Assembly: GCA_963699755.1 (NCBI GenBank)
Contig: CAVOVB010000002.1
Location: 224,001-288,000, forward strand
DNA length: 64,000 nucleotides
Source of the DNA: an uncultured delta proteobacterium
GTDB lineage: Bacteria; Myxococcota_A; Polyangia; Polyangiales; Houyiibacteriaceae
Direction: 5' to 3'
Of this stretch, positions 12,001 to 63,000 are shown piece by piece. The first letter of the stretch is position 1. Every line of letters starts with the position of its first letter. A program made the position numbers.

Positions 12001-15000
12001 CGCGGCCACGTGACCTCCATCGACAAGGCGAACGTGCTCGCCACCATGCAGGTTTGGCGCGAAGTTGCGACCGAAGTGGGCAAAGAGAACCCCGACATCC
12101 GCCTCGACCACCAACTCGTCGACTCGGCGGCGATGCGACTGGTCACGGACCCTTCTTCGTTCGACGTCATCGTGAGCGGCAACATGTTCGGTGACATTCT
12201 CTCTGATGAGGGAGCCGTGTTGACCGGCTCGCTCGGGCTGCTGCCGAGCGCATCGCTCGGTGAGGGAACACTGGGGGTGTATGAACCAATCCACGGCTCC
12301 GCGCCGGACATCGCGGGCAAGGGGATCGCGAACCCGTTGGGTACGATCTTGAGCGCTGCGATGCTGCTTCGCCATAGCCTCAACCTCGATGAAGAGGCGA
12401 GAGCAATTGAAGACGCCGTCCAGAAGGTCCTCGACAGCGGCCTGAGAACCGCGGATTTGAGCGGCGGACAACGTTCGCTCGGGACGACCGCGATGGCGGG
12501 CGCCGTTGTAGCCGCCATCGAAGGCGCCTAACGAAAGGAACGCCATGCCCCGAAAACGCGTGAGTCGCCTGTTCGACCTCAAGGAAGATGAGCACGGTCG
12601 TCAGTACATGGAAGTGTACCTCGATGGTATCGCGCTCCTGCGCTTGGTATTGAGCAACAAGGGTACTGCCTTCAGCTACGAAGAGCGCGTGGCGCTTCGA
12701 CTCGATGGCCTTCTTCCCCCCCAGTACAACACGCTCGCGCAGCAAATCGAGCGAGTCTACGAGGGCTTCGTCCAGGCCGCGACCGATATCGACAAATACC
12801 AGTACCTGCGTGCGGTCCAGGAGCGGCAGGAGATTCTCTTTTACGCGCTGCTCGAGAAGCATCTCGATGAAATGCTGCCCATCGTTTACACACCAACGGT
12901 TGGGGCCGCAGTGCAGCAGTTCAGCGCGCTTTACCAGAACCCGCGGGGTCTTTCCTATTCACCGCTCAACATCGATCGCGCCGAGCAAACGCTCGACTGT
13001 TACCCGATGGAAGACGTTCGCATGATCGTCGCAACGGACTCGTCCGCGATCCTCGGGATCGGCGACCAAGGCTATGGCGGTCTCGCGATTCCCATTGGAA
13101 AGATGGCGCTCTATACCGTCGGCGGTGGCGTGAGCCCATTCCACACGATGCCTGTGGCGCTCGACGTGGGCACCGATCGCATGGACCTGATCAACGACCC
13201 CGATTACCTGGGTGTCCGTCAGAAGCGTCTCCGTGGGGAGGACTACTACAAATTCCTCGACAAGTTCGTGGACGCGGTCTGGTCGCGTTGGCCCGACGCG
13301 GTGATCCAGTGGGAGGATCTTTCCAAGAGCTCCGCTTTCACGGTGCTCGAGCGATACCGGGACCGCGGACCTTCATTCAACGATGACATTCAGGGGACGG
13401 GAGCGGTCGCGCTCGCCGGCATCCTCGCGGCATGCCACCTCCGCAACGAAAGCCTGAAGGACGAAGTCTTCGTCATTCACGGCGCGGGTGCGGGTGGGGT
13501 CGGCGTGGCCTGGGCCATCCGGGAAGGCTTGGTTCGAGCCGGGCTGAGCCGTGCGGAAGCCAAATCGCGGGTCTTCGTGCTCGACTCCCAGGGACTTCTG
13601 CTCACCGACCGCGACATCGACGAGTACAAACGCGGATTCGCCCACGATCGAACGATCATCCGAGATTGGAAGTTCGAAGGTGACACGCCCGACCTGGTCG
13701 AGACGATTCGCAACGCGGGGGCGACGGTGCTCTTGGGCCTCTCCGGGAGACCGGACGCTTTCAACGAGGAAATCGTCCACGCCATGGCGGACAACCACAA
13801 GTGGCCGATCATCTTCCCGCTCTCGAACCCCACGAGCTCAGCAGAAGCCAAACCGATCGACATCTACCGCTGGACCAAGGGTCAGGCGATCGTGGCCACG
13901 GGCAGCCCCTTCGATCCGGTCATGATGGGCGGCGTCACTCACCCGATCGGCCAGGGCAACAACGCCTTCATCTTTCCGGGCCTAGGCTTCGGGGCGATCT
14001 TGGTCAACGCGAAGGCGATCACGGACGGCATGGTCTTGGAAGCTTCCCAAGCCCTTGCGAACTACACGATCGAGAAATACGTCGAAGGCGGTCTCATCTA
14101 CCCACCTGTCAGTGACCTCCAAGAAACCTCGGTTCGAGTCGCCGCCGCCGTGGTCAAACAGGCCATTGCCGACGGCGTAGCTTGCCGAAAGAACATTCCA
14201 GAAGACATCGAAGCATTCGTCCGAGAACGCTTCTGGCACCCAAGCTATCTGCCCTTCGTCCGGGGTCACTTAGACTAGGGACACGAGGAGATTTCATGGA
14301 GATCGCCGTTGCGCTCTTTGAGCAGGTGACCGCATTGGATGCGATTGGACCCTACGAGGTTCTGCAACGACTTCCGGGTGCGCGGGTTCGTTTCGTTGGG
14401 CATCGCAAGGGCGAGATCCGAACGGACAACGGTTTTTTGGGGCTAATGGTCGACTTCCCTTTCCACGAGGTCGGCCAACCGGACATCGTCGTCATTCCAG
14501 GTGGGGTTGGGACTCGAGGCCTTGTGCACGATGATGTGATCCTCGACTGGATCCGTGGCGCTCACCAGACAAGTCTTTTCACGACGTCTGTCTGCACGGG
14601 CTCGCTGCTCCTAGCGGCGGCAGGTCTGCTGACAGGACATAAGGCGACGACTCACTTCTCTGCGCGACCGCTGCTTCTCAAGTACGGCGTGATTCCTTCC
14701 GACGAACGCGTGGTTCAGGAAGGAAAGATCATCACTGCGGCCGGAGTATCGAGCGGGATCGACATGGCACTGCGCCTCGCCGAGCAAGTCACGGACGCCA
14801 CGACCGCAAAAGCCCTGCAGCTCATGATCGAGTACGACCCGCGGCCGCCACACGATGCGGGCGCGCTGGAAAAGGTAGACGCCGAAGTTCTCGCCCGGGT
14901 CCAAGAGCTAGCGAATCTCGAGAGCTGAACCTGTCATCGAAAAAGGCAGAGCGCGGCGCGGTCCGCCCCACCGCCGTCCACACGAACGCCTACCTAAGAG

Positions 15001-60000: not shown

Positions 60001-63000
60001 CGAAGACCTTCCTTGACCCAAGATGCCTGGAGGTTCGGGATGTCCCAGCCGAGCATGAGGCGGGCCGTCGCGTAAAGGCGGAAGACCTCATCACCGGTCG
60101 GCCCTGGCCGAACGCCCGGTACCTCGCTGGCCGCGAAGAGCGGCGCGTCCTCGTGGACGAAAGACAGTGGGACGAACTCGGTGAACCCACCGGTCTCCCG
60201 TTGGACTCTACGTAGAAGATCCATGTGCCGCATCCGATCCTCGACCGATTCGACGTGCCCAAACATCATGGTGCAAGTCGTTCGAATGCCGAGCCGGTGG
60301 GCGGAGGTGACGACGTCCAGCCATTCCCCGGTCGTGATCCGGGTGGGTGAAATGGTTTTGCGCAGACGGTCGTCGAGAATTTCGGCCGAGGTGCCAGGAA
60401 GCGTGCCGAGACCCGCCTCCTTGAGCTCGGCCAGGTAGTCGCTGTAGGAGACCCGCTTGAGCGAAGCGCCAAACTTCACCTCTTCCGGCGAGAAAGCGTG
60501 GATGTGGATCTCAGGCGCCGCTTCCTTCACGACGCGACACAGCTCGCCATAGCTGTTGCCGGTCAAATTCGGCGAGAGACCAGCTTGTAGGCAGACTTCG
60601 GTGGCACCCATCTCCCAGGCCTGGCGGACTCGCCGCGCGACCTCTTCGTGGGGAAGGAAGTAGCCATGCTCCGAACGCACCGTGCGGGCAAATGCACAGA
60701 ACTTGCAGTTCTTGATGCAGACGTTGGTGAAGTTGATGTTTCGATTGACGACGTAGCTGACCCGCTCACCCACCTGCCGTCGGCGGAGCTCGTCGGCAAC
60801 CATGCACAGGGCCTGGAGGTCGCGCCCTCGCGCCTCGTTCAAGACCATTCCGTCTTCGACGCTGAGCTCATCACCGCCGAGGCTCTGCTCGAGGATCGTG
60901 CGAATAGGGGACGAAACCTCCTGGAGACAGGTTTCGAGAGCGGTCGTCATGGCGTGGCTAGCTCCATTTGAACCTTGCGGATATGAGGGCGCAAAGATGC
61001 GTCCACGAAACCCCGCGCATCGAGGTGACCGGGATATGCTGGCAGTCTCCGTTCGAGTCGAAATCCCTCGGCTTCGCAGGCTTCGCCAAGGCGTTCGAGA
61101 TACGGCCAGGGATGTTGAGGGTTGATGTAGTCTGGGGTCACAGGCGAAATGCCACCGAAGTCGTTGATGCCTGCATGGATCAAGGCGGCCGTCGAAGCTG
61201 GATTGAGATTAGGTGGCGCCTGAACGCTGATGTCGTCGTCGAGGATCAGCCGGGTCAGGGCGATCGTGGCGGCGAGCTCGTCGGAGCTCGGCTCGCGCGA
61301 CAAACCCATCGGAGTATCGGGATGCGCGCGAAAGTTCTGGACGATCACTTCGCCGATATGACCGTGCTCGCGATGCAAGCGTCGAATCGCAACAATCGTG
61401 TCGATTCGCTCCTCGATCGTCTCACCGATTCCGATGAGAAGGCCCGAGGTGAACGGAATTTGGAGCTCGCCCGCTTCGCGAGTCATTTGAAGGCGCTTGG
61501 CCGGTCGCTTGTCGGGCGCGCGATGGTGCGGCATGCCCCTTTCGCATAGTCGCTCACTCACGTTCTCGAGCATCAAGCCGAGGCTCACGTTCACTGGCCT
61601 GAGCGCGACCATATCCTCGCGAGAAAGAATGCCGGCATTGGTGTGCGGTAGCAGCCCCGCTCGTAGCGCTTCTTCGGCCGCCCAGCGAAGATAGTCGACC
61701 GTTCGTTCGTGCCCCCAAGAACGCAGTAGGGCCCGGTATTCCCGAAAGCCGGTTTCAGGCGTGTCACCCAAGCAAAACAGCGCCTCGATGCAGCCCTGCT
61801 GTCGTGCTCGATGGAGCCAATCGTGAATCTCGCCGGGGCTCATCGTCCATTCGCCGGGATCGCCCGGCGAACGACGAAACGAGCAGTAGTCGCAGTGATT
61901 CCGGCAGAGATTGGTGATCGGAAGAAACACCTTGGGAGAGTACGTGAGCCTCTTCCCCCAGGCACGATCGCGACGAGCACCAGCAGCCTCGCAAAGGGAG
62001 GCGCCGTCGAGCTCGCTCAGTCGGTAGGCGTCTTGCTCGCTGACCGGACCGAAGCTTGCGCTGTGCAAAGTTCTCGACATCGGGGTCATTGCATCTTGGC
62101 GATGACGGTGTCCGCAAACCGGTTCAGGCCGTCGAGGCGTCCCTGCAAATCGCCGCCTAGCATGGGAGTCCCATACATGAGCCAGGGCACGGTGATGATA
62201 TCGGTCACGCCTGCGTCTTCGAGACGCTTGTACCCGTCGGCATCCCAGACGTCAGTAACGACCGCCTGGTATTCCATCGGCAGATGGTCACGACCGTACT
62301 CCTTGCGAAAGGTTTCGATCTGGCCGATGAGGGCGAGCAGCTTCTTCGAAGTAAGCATCGCCGAAGACCAGCCGTCTCCGTATTTGGCTGCGCGTCGAAG
62401 CCCCGGCTTGCTGTGGCCACCTATGTAAATGGGAATGGGCTTGCTCGGGGCCGGGCTCATCTGGATCTTACCGAAGTCGTAGTGCTCGCCGTGGTATTCG
62501 ACCATGCCGCCTCCCCAAATGAGGCGGAGTATTTCGAGACACTCGTCCATGCGCTTGCCGCGCGTGTCGAAGTCCGTGCCACACCACTTGAACTCCTCGG
62601 GCAGCCAGCCGAGCCCACAGCCGAAGCCAAAGCGATTATTGGAAAGCGCCGCCAGGGAAGCGACCTGTTTGGCGACCAAGACTGGATGGCGCACGGGCAG
62701 CTTCACGACGCTCGTGTAGAGGAACAGCGATTGCGTCGCAGCAGCCATGGCGGCTGCGCCCACAATCGGCTCAATCCACGGAGTCTCGCCGTCCCACATG
62801 CGACTGCCGTCTTGGGTGTACGGGTACGGCTTACTGACTTCCTCTGAGAAGAAGATCGAGTCGGGCAAGACGATGGCATGATAGCCGCGTTTCTCCGCCT
62901 CCTTCGCCACCGGGATGTAGTGCTCAGGCGGCGCCATGGCGATTGAGACGCTGAATTTCATCGGGCGGACCTTAGCATAGGGGAGCCCCAAGCAAAGCCT

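Follow-up and report, generated by a model that had tools for sequence, protein, structure and literature searches.

Myxococcota were ranked in the class Deltaproteobacteria in 2018. In a supplementary table that Holert et al. published in that year, 'Myxococc' turns up 230 times in the lowest-common-ancestor labels given to steroid-protein matches, and the main text does not discuss the Myxococcales matches (PMC5790920). The survey's finding, which took steroid degradation to be new in a third phylum, was thus overstated. Sterol producers also occur among Myxococcota, according to PMC13277303. In mycobacteria, a KstR operator is reported in the Rv3520c/Rv3521 intergenic region (PMC1995591), and a review counts Rv3520c among the F420 enzymes that take part in cholesterol degradation (PMC12855090). 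A genetic link between F420 and steroids, proposed as new in the survey, was therefore already in print for Rv3520c. The fresh evidence here is a mycobacterial-type KstR operator, TnnAACnnGTTnnA.

We analysed a stretch of 64,000 nucleotides of contig C2 (hereafter the window) from an uncultured sediment myxobacterium. Its genus comprises uncultured Myxococcota, and relatives carry the labels Sandaracinaceae, Polyangiales or Myxococcales. The assembly, at 9% contamination, is a mixed bin in which contig C7 represents a second congeneric genome; loci off C2 may therefore belong to another organism.

Steroid genes of the window

Gene families were called with NCBIfam models and their curated cut-offs, Pfam, and sequence searches of solved structures (Table 1). 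All genes that the survey had named within 14994-60950 are present on the strands given, many above NCBIfam curated cut-offs. The cluster is not complete as had been claimed, since KstD, KshB, HsaB, HsaC, HsaD, a P450 and a 3-hydroxysteroid oxidase all lie outside the window. It is the central part of a regulon whose other members are scattered, and the window encodes functions for the side chain, rings A/B (KshA, HsaA-like, HsaEFG) and rings C/D (FadD3, IpdAB, IpdC, IpdF, EchA20, FadA6). GC content is even throughout (0.59-0.64). The stretch also contains genes unrelated to steroids: rRNA methyltransferase rlmKL (about 23745-25844), a CPBP protease gene, and a gene with a weak PilZ-domain match just under the Pfam cut-off.

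Table 1. Features of the window, with bit scores (curated cut-offs in brackets)
Feature	Position	Strand	Evidence
SDR	14994-15746	-	
Acyl-CoA dehydrogenase pair	15775-16920, 16917-18122	-	genes overlap by 4 nt
HsaF-type aldolase	18127-19155	-	549 (229)
HsaG-type acetaldehyde dehydrogenase	19152-20048	-	450 (282)
HsaE-type hydratase	20063-20863	-	389 (409)
HsaA-like flavin-dependent 3-HSA hydroxylase, oxygenase subunit	20869-22080	-	410 (450); start uncertain (22059, 22080 or 22119)
Operator 1 TAGAACGTGTTCTA	22153-22166		28.1 bits; divergent region HsaA-like/amidohydrolase
Amidohydro_2 protein	22245-23117	+	PF04909 87; shares operator 1 with HsaA-like gene
KstR-like TetR repressor	25882-26460	-	124 (280); last gene of operon starting at 32599
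KshA-type Rieske 3-ketosteroid 9alpha-hydroxylase oxygenase	26463-27434	-	KshA_C (Pfam) 178, Rieske 75; ATG at 27434
Acyl-CoA ligase PRK07798	27472-29076	-	693 (543)
Thiolase-like pair PRK08313, PRK07937	29089-30237, 30237-31292	-	641 (514), 494 (419)
ChsH2 OB-fold protein	31292-32200	-	PF01796 92
SCP2 protein	32228-32599	-	PF02036 66
Operator 2 TGAAACGTGTTCTA	32606-32619		31.6 bits; 7 nt upstream of SCP2 start
Thiolase PRK07801	33210-34364	-	708 (591)
Acyl-CoA dehydrogenase pair	35450-36610, 34432-35445	-	in HIP operon
IpdC-like NMO	36620-37978	-	
IpdB	37975-38739	-	283 to 6co6/6con
IpdA	38736-39581	-	352 to 6co6/6con
EchA20-type hydratase PRK07938	39591-40352	-	391 (260)
Operator 3 TGAAACGCGTTTCA	40381-40394		25.7 bits; 29 nt upstream of EchA20-type gene
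FadD3	40948-42549	+	761 (657)
SDR	42542-43306	+	
137-aa ORF	43344-43757	+	
CasG-like steroid-acid CoA ligase	43754-45451	+	663 (750)
Thiolase PRK07851	45455-46675	+	657 (580)
Operator 4 TGAAACATGTTTCA	47864-47877		31.7 bits; 26 nt upstream of 47890
CurA-like reductase	47890-48912	+	first in operon 47890-53697
SDR PRK07791	48909-49820	+	473 (373)
ORF without family name	49930-50580	+	
Acyl-CoA dehydrogenase pair	50580-51743, 51743-52918	+	
SDR PRK07831, IpdF-type	52915-53697	+	430 (336)
Extended SDR	53700-54677	-	PF01370 80; partial 3beta-HSD match PF01073 66; ATG at 54677
Near-consensus KstR-type site TGAAACACGTTCTT	54714-54727		22.5 bits; one mismatch
Rv3520c-type LLM, TIGR03559 F420_Rv3520c	54782-55825	+	368 (335)
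Fno	55833-56489	+	above cut-off
CofE	56486-57301	+	above cut-off
CofD	57298-58233	+	above cut-off
CofC	58230-58826	+	above cut-off
SDR	58823-59665	-	
CofH	59673-60950	-	above cut-off
CofG	60947-62089	-	above cut-off
Second F420-dependent LLM, TIGR03619	62086-62991	-	above cut-off

The acyl-CoA dehydrogenase pair at 15775-18122 resembles the small/large subunit type for steroid side chains, to judge from its top models (pimD_small, 233 bits, and pimC_large, 288 bits, both under cut-off). The M. tuberculosis gene names on PRK models follow the survey's best Swiss-Prot matches, the model descriptions being generic; we take PRK07798 to be FadD19-type and PRK07801 to be FadA6-type.

The HsaF/HsaG/HsaE-type block (18127-20863, minus strand) represents the lower meta-cleavage genes. 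Searches of solved structures matched the HsaA-like protein to 3-HSA hydroxylase 2rfq/3afe (319 bits), the KshA-type protein to KshA 4qdc (207 bits) and the Amidohydro_2 protein to the uncharacterised 3irs. The TetR protein matched best Mtb KstR 5cw8 (84 bits), with a well aligned HTH, and no paralog of it was found in the genome at E<=1e-20. The ring C/D (HIP) operon spans 33210-40352 on the minus strand. Its IpdA and IpdB assignments are supported by their structure matches, the next family scoring 86 and 64 bits, respectively. The IpdE2 model reached 153 bits, well under its cut-off of 450.

KstR-type operators in the window and the genome

The operator TnnAACnnGTTnnA occurs four times in the window, against 0.24 expected, and none of 100 shuffles reached four. 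Each of the four precedes the first gene of an operon, at a distance of 7-34 nt, and their core equals that of the mycobacterial KstR sites printed in PMC1995591. Operator 3 is kept in close relatives (loci L106-L109 and L132).

Searching the whole genome gave 48 loose matches, 23 of them strict. Every strict site is either intergenic with respect to the called ORFs or no more than 40 nt from a called start, whereas 23 of the other 25 fall inside ORFs. Strict sites stand in front of genes that could supply the missing steps: a KstD-like gene (592 bits, under its cut-off of 789), an HsaD-like gene that adjoins an HsaC-like one and has a perfect operator, an HsaB-like flavin reductase and a PaaE-type reductase (KshB candidate). 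Further candidates of this kind behind strict sites are KshA paralogs, a P450, an acyl-CoA dehydrogenase pair, a ChsH2-DUF35 and Ltp2-like pair (710 bits, cut-off 424) and a thiolase-FadJ-FadL/TodX operon. Of these, KstD, the P450, the Ltp2-like gene and the thiolase operon share contig C2 with the window. The survey had noted that HsaB, HsaC and HsaD are absent from the cluster. The KstR, HsaA, HsaE, KstD, HsaB, HsaC and HsaD candidates all score under NCBIfam equivalog cut-offs.

Across the phylum, 28 of 30 myxobacterial loci have the operator next to the start of kstD; a site was found at 36 of 80 IpdA loci. These data support a KstR-type operator that would tie the window operons to the dispersed candidates. 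Because the operator joins the two, the case for steroid catabolism is stronger than in the survey, completeness aside.

F420 genes beside the steroid genes

In the F420 operon (54782-58826, plus strand), successive genes are separated by 7 nt or share 4 nt. It follows the last steroid operon, though not as directly as had been reported, because one SDR gene (53700-54677), divergent from the F420 operon, lies between. The near-consensus operator site at 54714 is separated by 37 nt from the start of the SDR gene and by 55 nt from that of the LLM gene. Among untrained sites in 5.35 Mb, it is one of just two that exceed 20 bits. The window LLM belongs to the same NCBIfam family as Rv3520c, which has a KstR operator in mycobacteria (PMC1995591).

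It is possible, although we do not favour it, that the steroid regulon is real while the F420 block is a mere neighbor, with an LLM of general role (such as supplying or draining the F420 pool) and a site at 54714 that controls the SDR only. LLM-Fno-CofEDC is a conserved unit in its own right: outside the genus, LLM accompanies Fno and cof genes in 14 of 20 loci, four of them IpdA-negative (G002, G222, G231 and G100). Since some myxobacterial genomes that lack steroid genes have the block too, adjacency alone is weak proof. Steroid genes are absent from 17 of these 20 stretches, and on complete or long contigs LLM lies about 1 Mb (G228) and 0.7 Mb (G128) from IpdA. The site at 54714 could serve the divergent SDR gene alone, and 7 of the 18 other genomes of the genus have a degenerate site there. 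However, a near-consensus operator is present in the F420 promoter region of 12 of 19 genus genomes (11 of 18 others, at the same place, at least 19.8 bits). The survey had followed the adjacency within the genus and allowed that it may be mere synteny; it recurs in three further lineages from different families. In G145 and G181, LLM-Fno-CofE is co-directional and downstream of operator-bearing steroid genes, and in G087 it lies among steroid genes. In addition, a second, separate F420 enzyme gene, coding for a deazaflavin reductase (TIGR00026), shares 4 nt with the end of kstD and is there in 13 of 19 genus genomes.

Of the 401 Myxococcota genomes sampled, 110 have IpdA (62 of 254 genera), and so do all 18 other genus genomes. 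CofD is encoded by 94 of the 110 IpdA-positive and 20 of the 291 IpdA-negative genomes, and LLM by 97 and 16, counts that are not phylogenetically independent. G139, alone in a family of 29, carries IpdA, KstD, LLM and CofD together. Given the 16 IpdA-positive genomes without CofD, F420 is not required for the pathway. Overall, the F420 block is probably wired to the steroid regulon, as judged from sequence. The survey's suggestion that F420 serves a reductive step is plausible but unproven: the operator, the kstD-linked reductase, adjacency and co-occurrence speak for it, and the self-contained block and IpdA-negative genomes against.

Proposed pathway and its substrate

Based on the observed family memberships, operators, synteny and co-occurrence, we consider it likely that the window holds the core of an actinobacterial-type aerobic 9,10-seco regulon for steroids, probably sterols, into which the F420 block has probably been drawn. 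The single KstR-like TetR repressor is predicted to bind the TnnAACnnGTTnnA operators before the window operons and the dispersed genes. The predicted substrate would enter through a FadL/TodX-type outer-membrane channel, its 3-hydroxyl would be oxidized, and a P450 would oxidize the terminal side chain before CoA activation. Paired acyl-CoA dehydrogenases, a ChsH2-type hydratase, SDRs and thiolases would next carry out beta-oxidation, with Ltp2-type cleavage last. KstD and KshAB would then open ring B; HsaAB, a BphC/D-like dioxygenase and hydrolase, and HsaEFG would remove ring A; and FadD3, IpdF, IpdC, EchA20, IpdAB and a thiolase would break down rings C and D. The F420 block (LLM, Fno and CofEDC, with CofHG nearby) is a conserved unit in itself, placed next to the cluster in this genus. 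Fno may load F420H2 from NADPH, and LLM and/or the kstD-linked deazaflavin reductase may act with it on a ketone or enone derived from a steroid.

A regulon for non-sterols, that is bile acids or other steroid acids, or just HIP-like bicyclic or branched-chain compounds without full ring A/B cleavage, seems unlikely to us. It would fit the top match of 43754-45451, a CasG-like steroid-24-oyl-CoA ligase, and HsaC and HsaD candidates nearer to BphC (217 versus 172 bits) and BphD (166 versus 147 bits). The window lacks a P450 and a 3-hydroxysteroid oxidase, and the cholesterol-oxidase-like gene scores 567 bits (cut-off 850). Yet KshA, HsaA-like and KstD-like genes are present with operators, as is the HsaD-like gene, and the P450, FadD19-type ligase, ChsH2/SCP2 and Ltp-type genes suit a long sterol side chain. 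That the genes tailor or remodel self-made sterols, outside sterols not being consumed, is very improbable despite the sterol producers in the phylum and the weak SdmA matches (63-78 bits) of KshA-like Rieske proteins, because IpdAB, FadD3, EchA20 and HsaEFG are ring-destroying steps and no squalene/oxidosqualene (sterol or hopanoid) cyclase was found in the genome (the sole match to PF13243 was partial, at 28 bits, and lay in a frame of 382 aa).

Without such a cyclase, the organism is likely a sterol consumer and not a producer. In the sterol catabolic reading that we prefer, the F420 block beside KstR-controlled genes hints at a role of this cofactor that is unexplained even in mycobacteria.

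Steroid genes in the window and elsewhere in the genome

We mapped the window by ORF calling with a GC3 filter, followed by profile scans against NCBIfam and Pfam (table). Many of the encoded proteins pass curated NCBIfam cut-offs, but the KstR, HsaA, HsaE, CasG-like ligase and IpdE2 proteins do not. The TetR protein scores 124 bits with the KstR model NF033703 (cut-off 280); its best solved relative is KstR of Mycobacterium tuberculosis (Mtb; 84 bits over the full length, with the HTH conserved). The HsaA-like protein reaches 410 bits with the HsaA model (cut-off 450) and 319 bits to the 3-HSA hydroxylases 2rfq/3afe. 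The Rieske protein can be assigned to KshA on the basis of 178 bits with KshA_C and 207 bits to the KshA structure 4qdc. IpdA and IpdB match the structures 6co6/6con at 352 and 283 bits, respectively, with the next family at 86 and 64. The ring C/D set (FadD3, IpdAB, EchA20, IpdF, IpdC and a FadA6-type thiolase) was recovered as such, with scores (cut-offs) of 761 (657) for FadD3, 391 (260) for PRK07938, 430 (336) for PRK07831 and 708 (591) for PRK07801; IpdC is placed at the level of the NMO family by the Pfam scan.

Features of the window and of other contigs of the assembly (bare coordinates count from the window start; C1, C2, C5 and C7 are contigs, and the window lies on C2)
Feature	Position	Strand	Remarks
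Ser/Thr kinase, ilvBN, ilvC, leuA, leuCD, cimA, leuB, malic enzyme	249-14278	+	housekeeping
ilvBN, ilvC, leuA, leuCD, cimA, leuB	2671-12531		all above cut-off
Lipid/steroid-type genes	14994-53697		about 35 genes, five transcription units
Operators	22153, 32606, 40381, 47864		
Amidohydro_2 protein	22245-23117	+	
ORFs	23123-23722, 40424-40903, 43344-43757, 49930-50580		no Pfam or NCBIfam match
rlmKL	23745-25844	-	786 bits, cut-off 466
TetR protein	25882-26460		
Extended SDR	53700-54677	-	
Rv3520c-type luciferase-like oxidoreductase, Fno, CofE, CofD, CofC	54782-58826		
SDR, CofH, CofG, second F420-type luciferase-like oxidoreductase	58823-62991	-	
KstD-like gene	C2:505085-506857		operator 6 nt upstream
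HsaD-like beside HsaC-like gene	C1:699450-701346		perfect operator before HsaD-like gene
HsaB-like flavin reductase	C1:848853		133 bits, cut-off 230; operator 58 nt upstream
PaaE-type reductase	C1:194828		sole KshB candidate; operator 31 nt upstream
KshA paralog	C1:196425		strict operator
P450	C2:787134		strict operator
ChsH2-DUF35 and Ltp2-like pair	C2:197321-198981		strict operator
Thiolase-FadJ-FadL/TodX operon	C2:702498-707277		strict operator
Further acyl-CoA dehydrogenase pair	C1:572528-574872		strict operator
IpdC paralog	C5:105664		strict operator
KstD-superfamily flavoproteins			strict operators; one lies two genes upstream of a cholesterol-oxidase-like gene
FG-GAP repeat protein	C1:1722981-1725695; C7:277079-279814		904/911 aa
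Hemerythrin-domain gene	C1:1831352-1831783; C7:172240-172671		
Operator pairs at the hemerythrin/KshA loci	C1:1833862/1833877; C7:168843/168858		15 nt apart

The survey's finding had described the cluster as complete. KstD, KshB, HsaB, HsaC, HsaD, the P450 and the 3-hydroxysteroid oxidase all lie outside the window, and the stretch is interrupted by the non-steroid genes rlmKL and a CPBP protease, as well as by a weak PilZ-domain match just under the Pfam cut-off. Candidates for the absent steps are dispersed over the assembly and preceded by strict operators. The KstD-like protein scores 592 bits (cut-off 789), with KstD models still its best matches, and the cholesterol-oxidase-like protein 567 bits (cut-off 850). 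The HsaC and HsaD models gave 222 bits (cut-off 450) and 187 bits (cut-off 400), and both candidates were closer to BphC/BphD in a PDB search. Because a perfect operator precedes the HsaD-like gene, the pair may still do this job.

Directly 5' of the steroid genes is a block for branched-chain amino acids. The housekeeping gene rlmKL, for a 23S rRNA methyltransferase, separates the KstR/KshA operon from the HsaA operon together with a 199-aa ORF (23123-23722). The Amidohydro_2 protein has a perfect operator in common with the HsaA-like gene; its closest solved relative is the uncharacterised Bordetella protein 3irs, and it may be a step of the steroid pathway still without an assigned enzyme. 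As a LigY-like stand-in for HsaD it found no support, its LigW matches being weak (24 bits). GC is even across the window (0.59-0.64), so we rejected a compositional island.

The assembly has an estimated contamination of 9%. Contig C7 (436 kb) aligns in inverted but collinear order with C1:1583460-1937678; most blocks are about 75-94% identical at the nucleotide level, and one 5.5-kb stretch reaches 99.8%. The bin therefore appears to hold part of a second, congeneric genome, in line with the contamination estimate. For this reason the KshA-HsaA-KshA operon of C7, with its two additional KshA genes and second HsaA gene, cannot safely be taken to hold paralogs from the organism of the window. 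The window itself is single-copy in the assembly, and the KstD-like gene, P450, Ltp2-like pair and thiolase operon lie on the same contig.

The KstR-type operator

As query we took TnnAACnnGTTnnA, the palindromic KstR consensus of mycobacteria, as printed in PMC1995591. The window holds four matches against 0.24 expected, a number reached in none of 100 shuffles, and all four are intergenic, with the first gene of an operon beginning 7-34 nt downstream of each. The 5.35-Mb assembly as a whole gave 48 loose matches, 23 of which have the strict form T[AG][AG]AAC..GTT[CT][CT]A. All 23 strict sites occupy promoter positions; of the 25 other loose matches, 23 lie inside ORFs. A weight matrix trained on this genome only found just two untrained sites above 20 bits in its 5.35 Mb. 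Applied across the phylum, it found a site next to the start of kstD at 28 of the 30 loci scanned, which come from many families, and a site in 36 of 80 IpdA loci (424 kb in total). The operator that marks an actinobacterial-type KstR regulon is thus present, and its conservation is the strongest support for a steroid regulon that we predict to be functional and conserved.

In gene content, this putative regulon shares with that of Mycobacterium and Rhodococcus (the Rv3492c-Rv3574 region) the families KshA, HsaA, HsaEFG, FadD3, IpdAB, IpdC, IpdF, EchA20, paired FadE, and Ltp with ChsH2-type proteins. The two systems also have in common a TetR repressor (here a candidate, with Mtb KstR as its best solved relative), an identical operator core TAGAACGTGTTCTA, and a tie, here a probable one, to a luciferase-like F420 oxidoreductase of the Rv3520c family. 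Unlike the mycobacterial regulon, the one described here belongs to a phylum, Myxococcota, in which it is known from uncultured metagenome-assembled genomes (MAGs) alone; its ring A/B genes are scattered, its HsaC/D candidates are BphC/D-like, an entire F420 biosynthesis set adjoins the steroid genes, and a FadL/TodX channel lies inside the regulon. In actinobacteria, the ipd, fadD3 and echA20 genes are under a second repressor, KstR2, with a different motif. Those of the window instead have a KstR-type site, and the genome yielded no KstR paralog at E<=1e-20. With the clusters of the Comamonas testosteroni TA441 type the organism is predicted to share the 9,10-seco chemistry, in a Gram-negative envelope; its regulator and operator are of the mycobacterial type.

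Several further sites accompany genes of less obvious function. An untrained site of 28.9 bits at C1:82551 lies inside a called 484-aa ABHD18-like ORF, next to genes for a wax-ester/triacylglycerol synthase and a LipQ-like esterase; it may point to the handling of steryl or wax esters, or to a miscalled start codon. The gene for an FG-GAP repeat protein is divergent from an aldehyde dehydrogenase gene, with a KstR-type site in between, and is followed by two small ORFs of no named family and an HcaD-like ferredoxin reductase. On both C1 and C7, a hemerythrin-domain gene follows a KshA paralog, with two operators upstream and a CarH-like regulator gene nearby.

Coenzyme F420 and the steroid genes

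Every gene of the F420 biosynthesis set, and Fno, scores above its cut-off: CofC 127 (105), CofD 263 (257), CofE 244 (181), CofG 415 (213), CofH 467 (374) and Fno 203 (150). The luciferase-like oxidoreductase at the head of this block (54782-55825) falls within the family TIGR03559 (F420_Rv3520c; 368 bits, cut-off 335), and its closest solved structures are Mer enzymes at only 70 bits. Like that of Rv3520c, its gene lies beside steroid genes under KstR control, which is a prediction for the window; unlike mycobacterial Rv3520c, in Myxococcota it travels with Fno and cof genes, even in genomes that lack IpdA.

A genetic link between F420 and steroid catabolism had been put forward as new by the survey. 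A KstR operator has been reported in the Rv3520c intergenic region (PMC1995591), Rv3520c is tabulated in the mycobacterial cholesterol gene set (PMC6429209), and a 2026 review calls it an F420-dependent oxidoreductase of cholesterol degradation (PMC12855090). The link itself is therefore not new. In the portions of these three sources available to us we saw no substrate assigned to Rv3520c, and titles and abstracts in the literature searched gave no steroid substrate for an FDOR and no F420-dependent steroid enzyme.

Proximity of the two gene sets could be mere synteny. Among 20 loci fetched outside the genus around the best matches to the oxidoreductase, it adjoins Fno in 14, usually with CofE/CofD and often with CofH/CofG, and four of these 14 genomes (G002, G222, G231 and G100) lack IpdA. 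The oxidoreductase, Fno and cof genes therefore form a conserved unit of their own, and their adjacency to steroid genes in one genus is weak evidence. Within the genus, 13 of the 18 other genomes have the oxidoreductase and IpdA on one contig, 15-19 kb apart; in the remaining five the two are on separate contigs.

Steroid genes are near the oxidoreductase in three of the 20 outside loci. In G145 (same family, other genus), one strand carries an operator, CurA-like, Hsd4A-type, two FadE and IpdF-type genes, a hydrolase and a GGDEF protein, then the oxidoreductase, Fno and CofE. In G181 (another family), an operator, FadE and a 508-aa protein precede the oxidoreductase, Fno and CofE, after which come an SDR, EchA20 and FadD3 with two more operators. 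G087 (another family) has a FadE pair leading into CofG-CofH; its oxidoreductase gene comes first in a row that also includes a KstD-like gene, an NMO, a FadD19-type ligase and an Ltp-type gene, and the locus yielded no operator.

Two possible links were seen within the genus. The 104-bp divergent region between the extended SDR and the oxidoreductase contains TGAAACACGTTCTT, with one mismatch to the consensus (22.5 bits), which could serve the SDR promoter, the oxidoreductase promoter or both. A site of at least 19.8 bits occupies the same position in 11 of the 18 other genomes of the genus, and in the other seven it has decayed to at most 9.4 bits with its flanks kept. Separately from this site, the operator-preceded kstD is followed, with a 4-nt overlap with its stop, by a gene (C2:506854-507327) for a deazaflavin-dependent reductase of TIGR00026, the Ddn/FDOR-A family (95 bits, cut-off 46; best solved relative Mtb Ddn, 88 bits). 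In contrast to the known family, this reductase is encoded in one operon with a kstD predicted to be KstR-controlled. The arrangement occurs in 13 of 19 genomes of the genus and in none of 11 outside it, and at least one of the two links is present in 18 of the 19. The F420-steroid connection appears to go beyond mere synteny but is still a proposal.

FDOR-A enzymes reduce activated C=C bonds, as stated in the accessible part of a preprint (bioRxiv 10.1101/2022.11.05.515281). We tentatively suggest, while rating it at somewhat under an even chance, that F420H2 supplies the reducing power for at least one step of steroid catabolism, through the reductase, the oxidoreductase and a KstR-switched Fno/cof set. 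On this reading, the substrate of the kstD-linked reductase would be a 3-keto-ene (or diene) ring A; that of the Rv3520c-type protein, working as a ketoreductase or alcohol dehydrogenase, would be an intermediate derived from a steroid or from HIP; and KstR would switch on Fno and the cof genes together with the pathway. Four families of the phylum (f34, f40, f27 and f35) gave 50-109 first-look candidates per genome with the oxidoreductase as query, against 2-12 in most others, and look unusually rich in luciferase-like, probably F420-dependent, enzymes.

Distribution in Myxococcota and significance

In a sample of 401 Myxococcota genomes, IpdA (E<=1e-40) was found in 110, including 98 of 339 of high quality and 62 of 254 genera; all 18 other genomes of the genus have it. 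This agrees with the 42 of 150 counted by the survey. A KstD-like gene (E<=1e-100) occurs in 68 of the 401, 62 of which also have IpdA. The nearest 80 IpdA loci in a species-genome collection are all MAG records, most of them labelled Sandaracinaceae, Polyangiales, Myxococcales, Myxococcota or Deltaproteobacteria; identity is 64-71% for the few that carry Acidimicrobiia, Actinomycetota, Binatia, Acidobacteria or Gammaproteobacteria labels. One in-frame stop, mostly TGA, is present in the IpdA matches of G126, G322, G062, G362, G297 and G082 and in many KstD matches; such stops may mark gene boundaries or reflect errors or recoding.

F420 genes were tallied in the same 401 genomes. CofD (114 genomes) and IpdA occur together in 94 genomes, IpdA only in 16, CofD only in 20 and neither in 271; for the oxidoreductase (113 genomes) the corresponding counts are 97, 13, 16 and 275, all being raw genome tallies in which relatives are not independent. 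Among the first 30 families tallied, six have IpdA and CofD, two IpdA only, one CofD only and 21 neither. In a family of 29 genomes, a single member (G139) has IpdA, KstD, the oxidoreductase and CofD together, and in the family of the window two positive genera have all four and four other genera none. Since some families have IpdA and lack CofD, F420 is not required for the pathway.

Comparative genomics has assigned aerobic steroid degradation to Actinobacteria and Proteobacteria (PMC4810484, PMC5790920). The main texts of both papers make no mention of myxobacteria, and myxobacterial terms are absent from the readable supplements of PMC4810484. The main text of a 2026 preprint comparing steroid clusters of Proteobacteria and Actinomycetota contains neither Myxococc- nor Deltaproteobacteria nor F420. 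Full-text searches, within the text accessible to them, returned no description of a 9,10-seco pathway in Myxococcota; the matches on myxobacteria and steroids concerned sterol synthesis, Sorangium hydroxylation and a passing MAG mention. No relevant paper on F420 in Myxococcota was found by title. In PMC5790920, the lowest-common-ancestor labels in supplement file 10, a list of steroid-protein HMM hits, include 'Myxococc' 230 times and 'Deltaproteobacteria' 692 times; Deltaproteobacteria also have a row in a supplementary figure, and the main text folds such hits into 'Proteobacteria (64%)'. The survey's proposal of a third phylum thus stems in part from reclassification: the pathway is, as far as the accessible literature goes, undescribed for Myxococcota, but hits from the group were already in that supplement.

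Tailoring of endogenous sterols was considered as another role for these genes and discarded because no squalene/oxidosqualene cyclase was found in the genome, the search giving only a 28-bit partial match. We conclude that there is good support for the core of an actinobacterial-type steroid regulon, predicted to be under KstR control, in this uncultured genus of myxobacteria, and that it occurs widely across the phylum.

About a quarter of the sampled Myxococcota species genomes (110/401) carry IpdA, and 68 a KstD-like gene; the nearest IpdA relatives are all uncultured, and many of them keep an intact operator of the mycobacterial type. Four sequencing runs from two studies, one possibly the source of the assembly, hold at least half of the sampled words from window positions 47800-57700. 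As these runs are labelled marine sediment or sediment metagenome, the organisms may matter for the fate of sterols that end up as sedimentary biomarkers. The pairing of F420 and steroid genes is strong and not obligatory and, with the reductase in the kstD operon, provides concrete candidate enzymes for a possible F420-dependent steroid reaction. Through the myxobacterial proteins, the role of the Rv3520c family could be approached outside a pathogen. If F420H2 is indeed the reductant, these proteins would open the way to the function of that family, and F420 would be the marker of a pathway variant common to two phyla.
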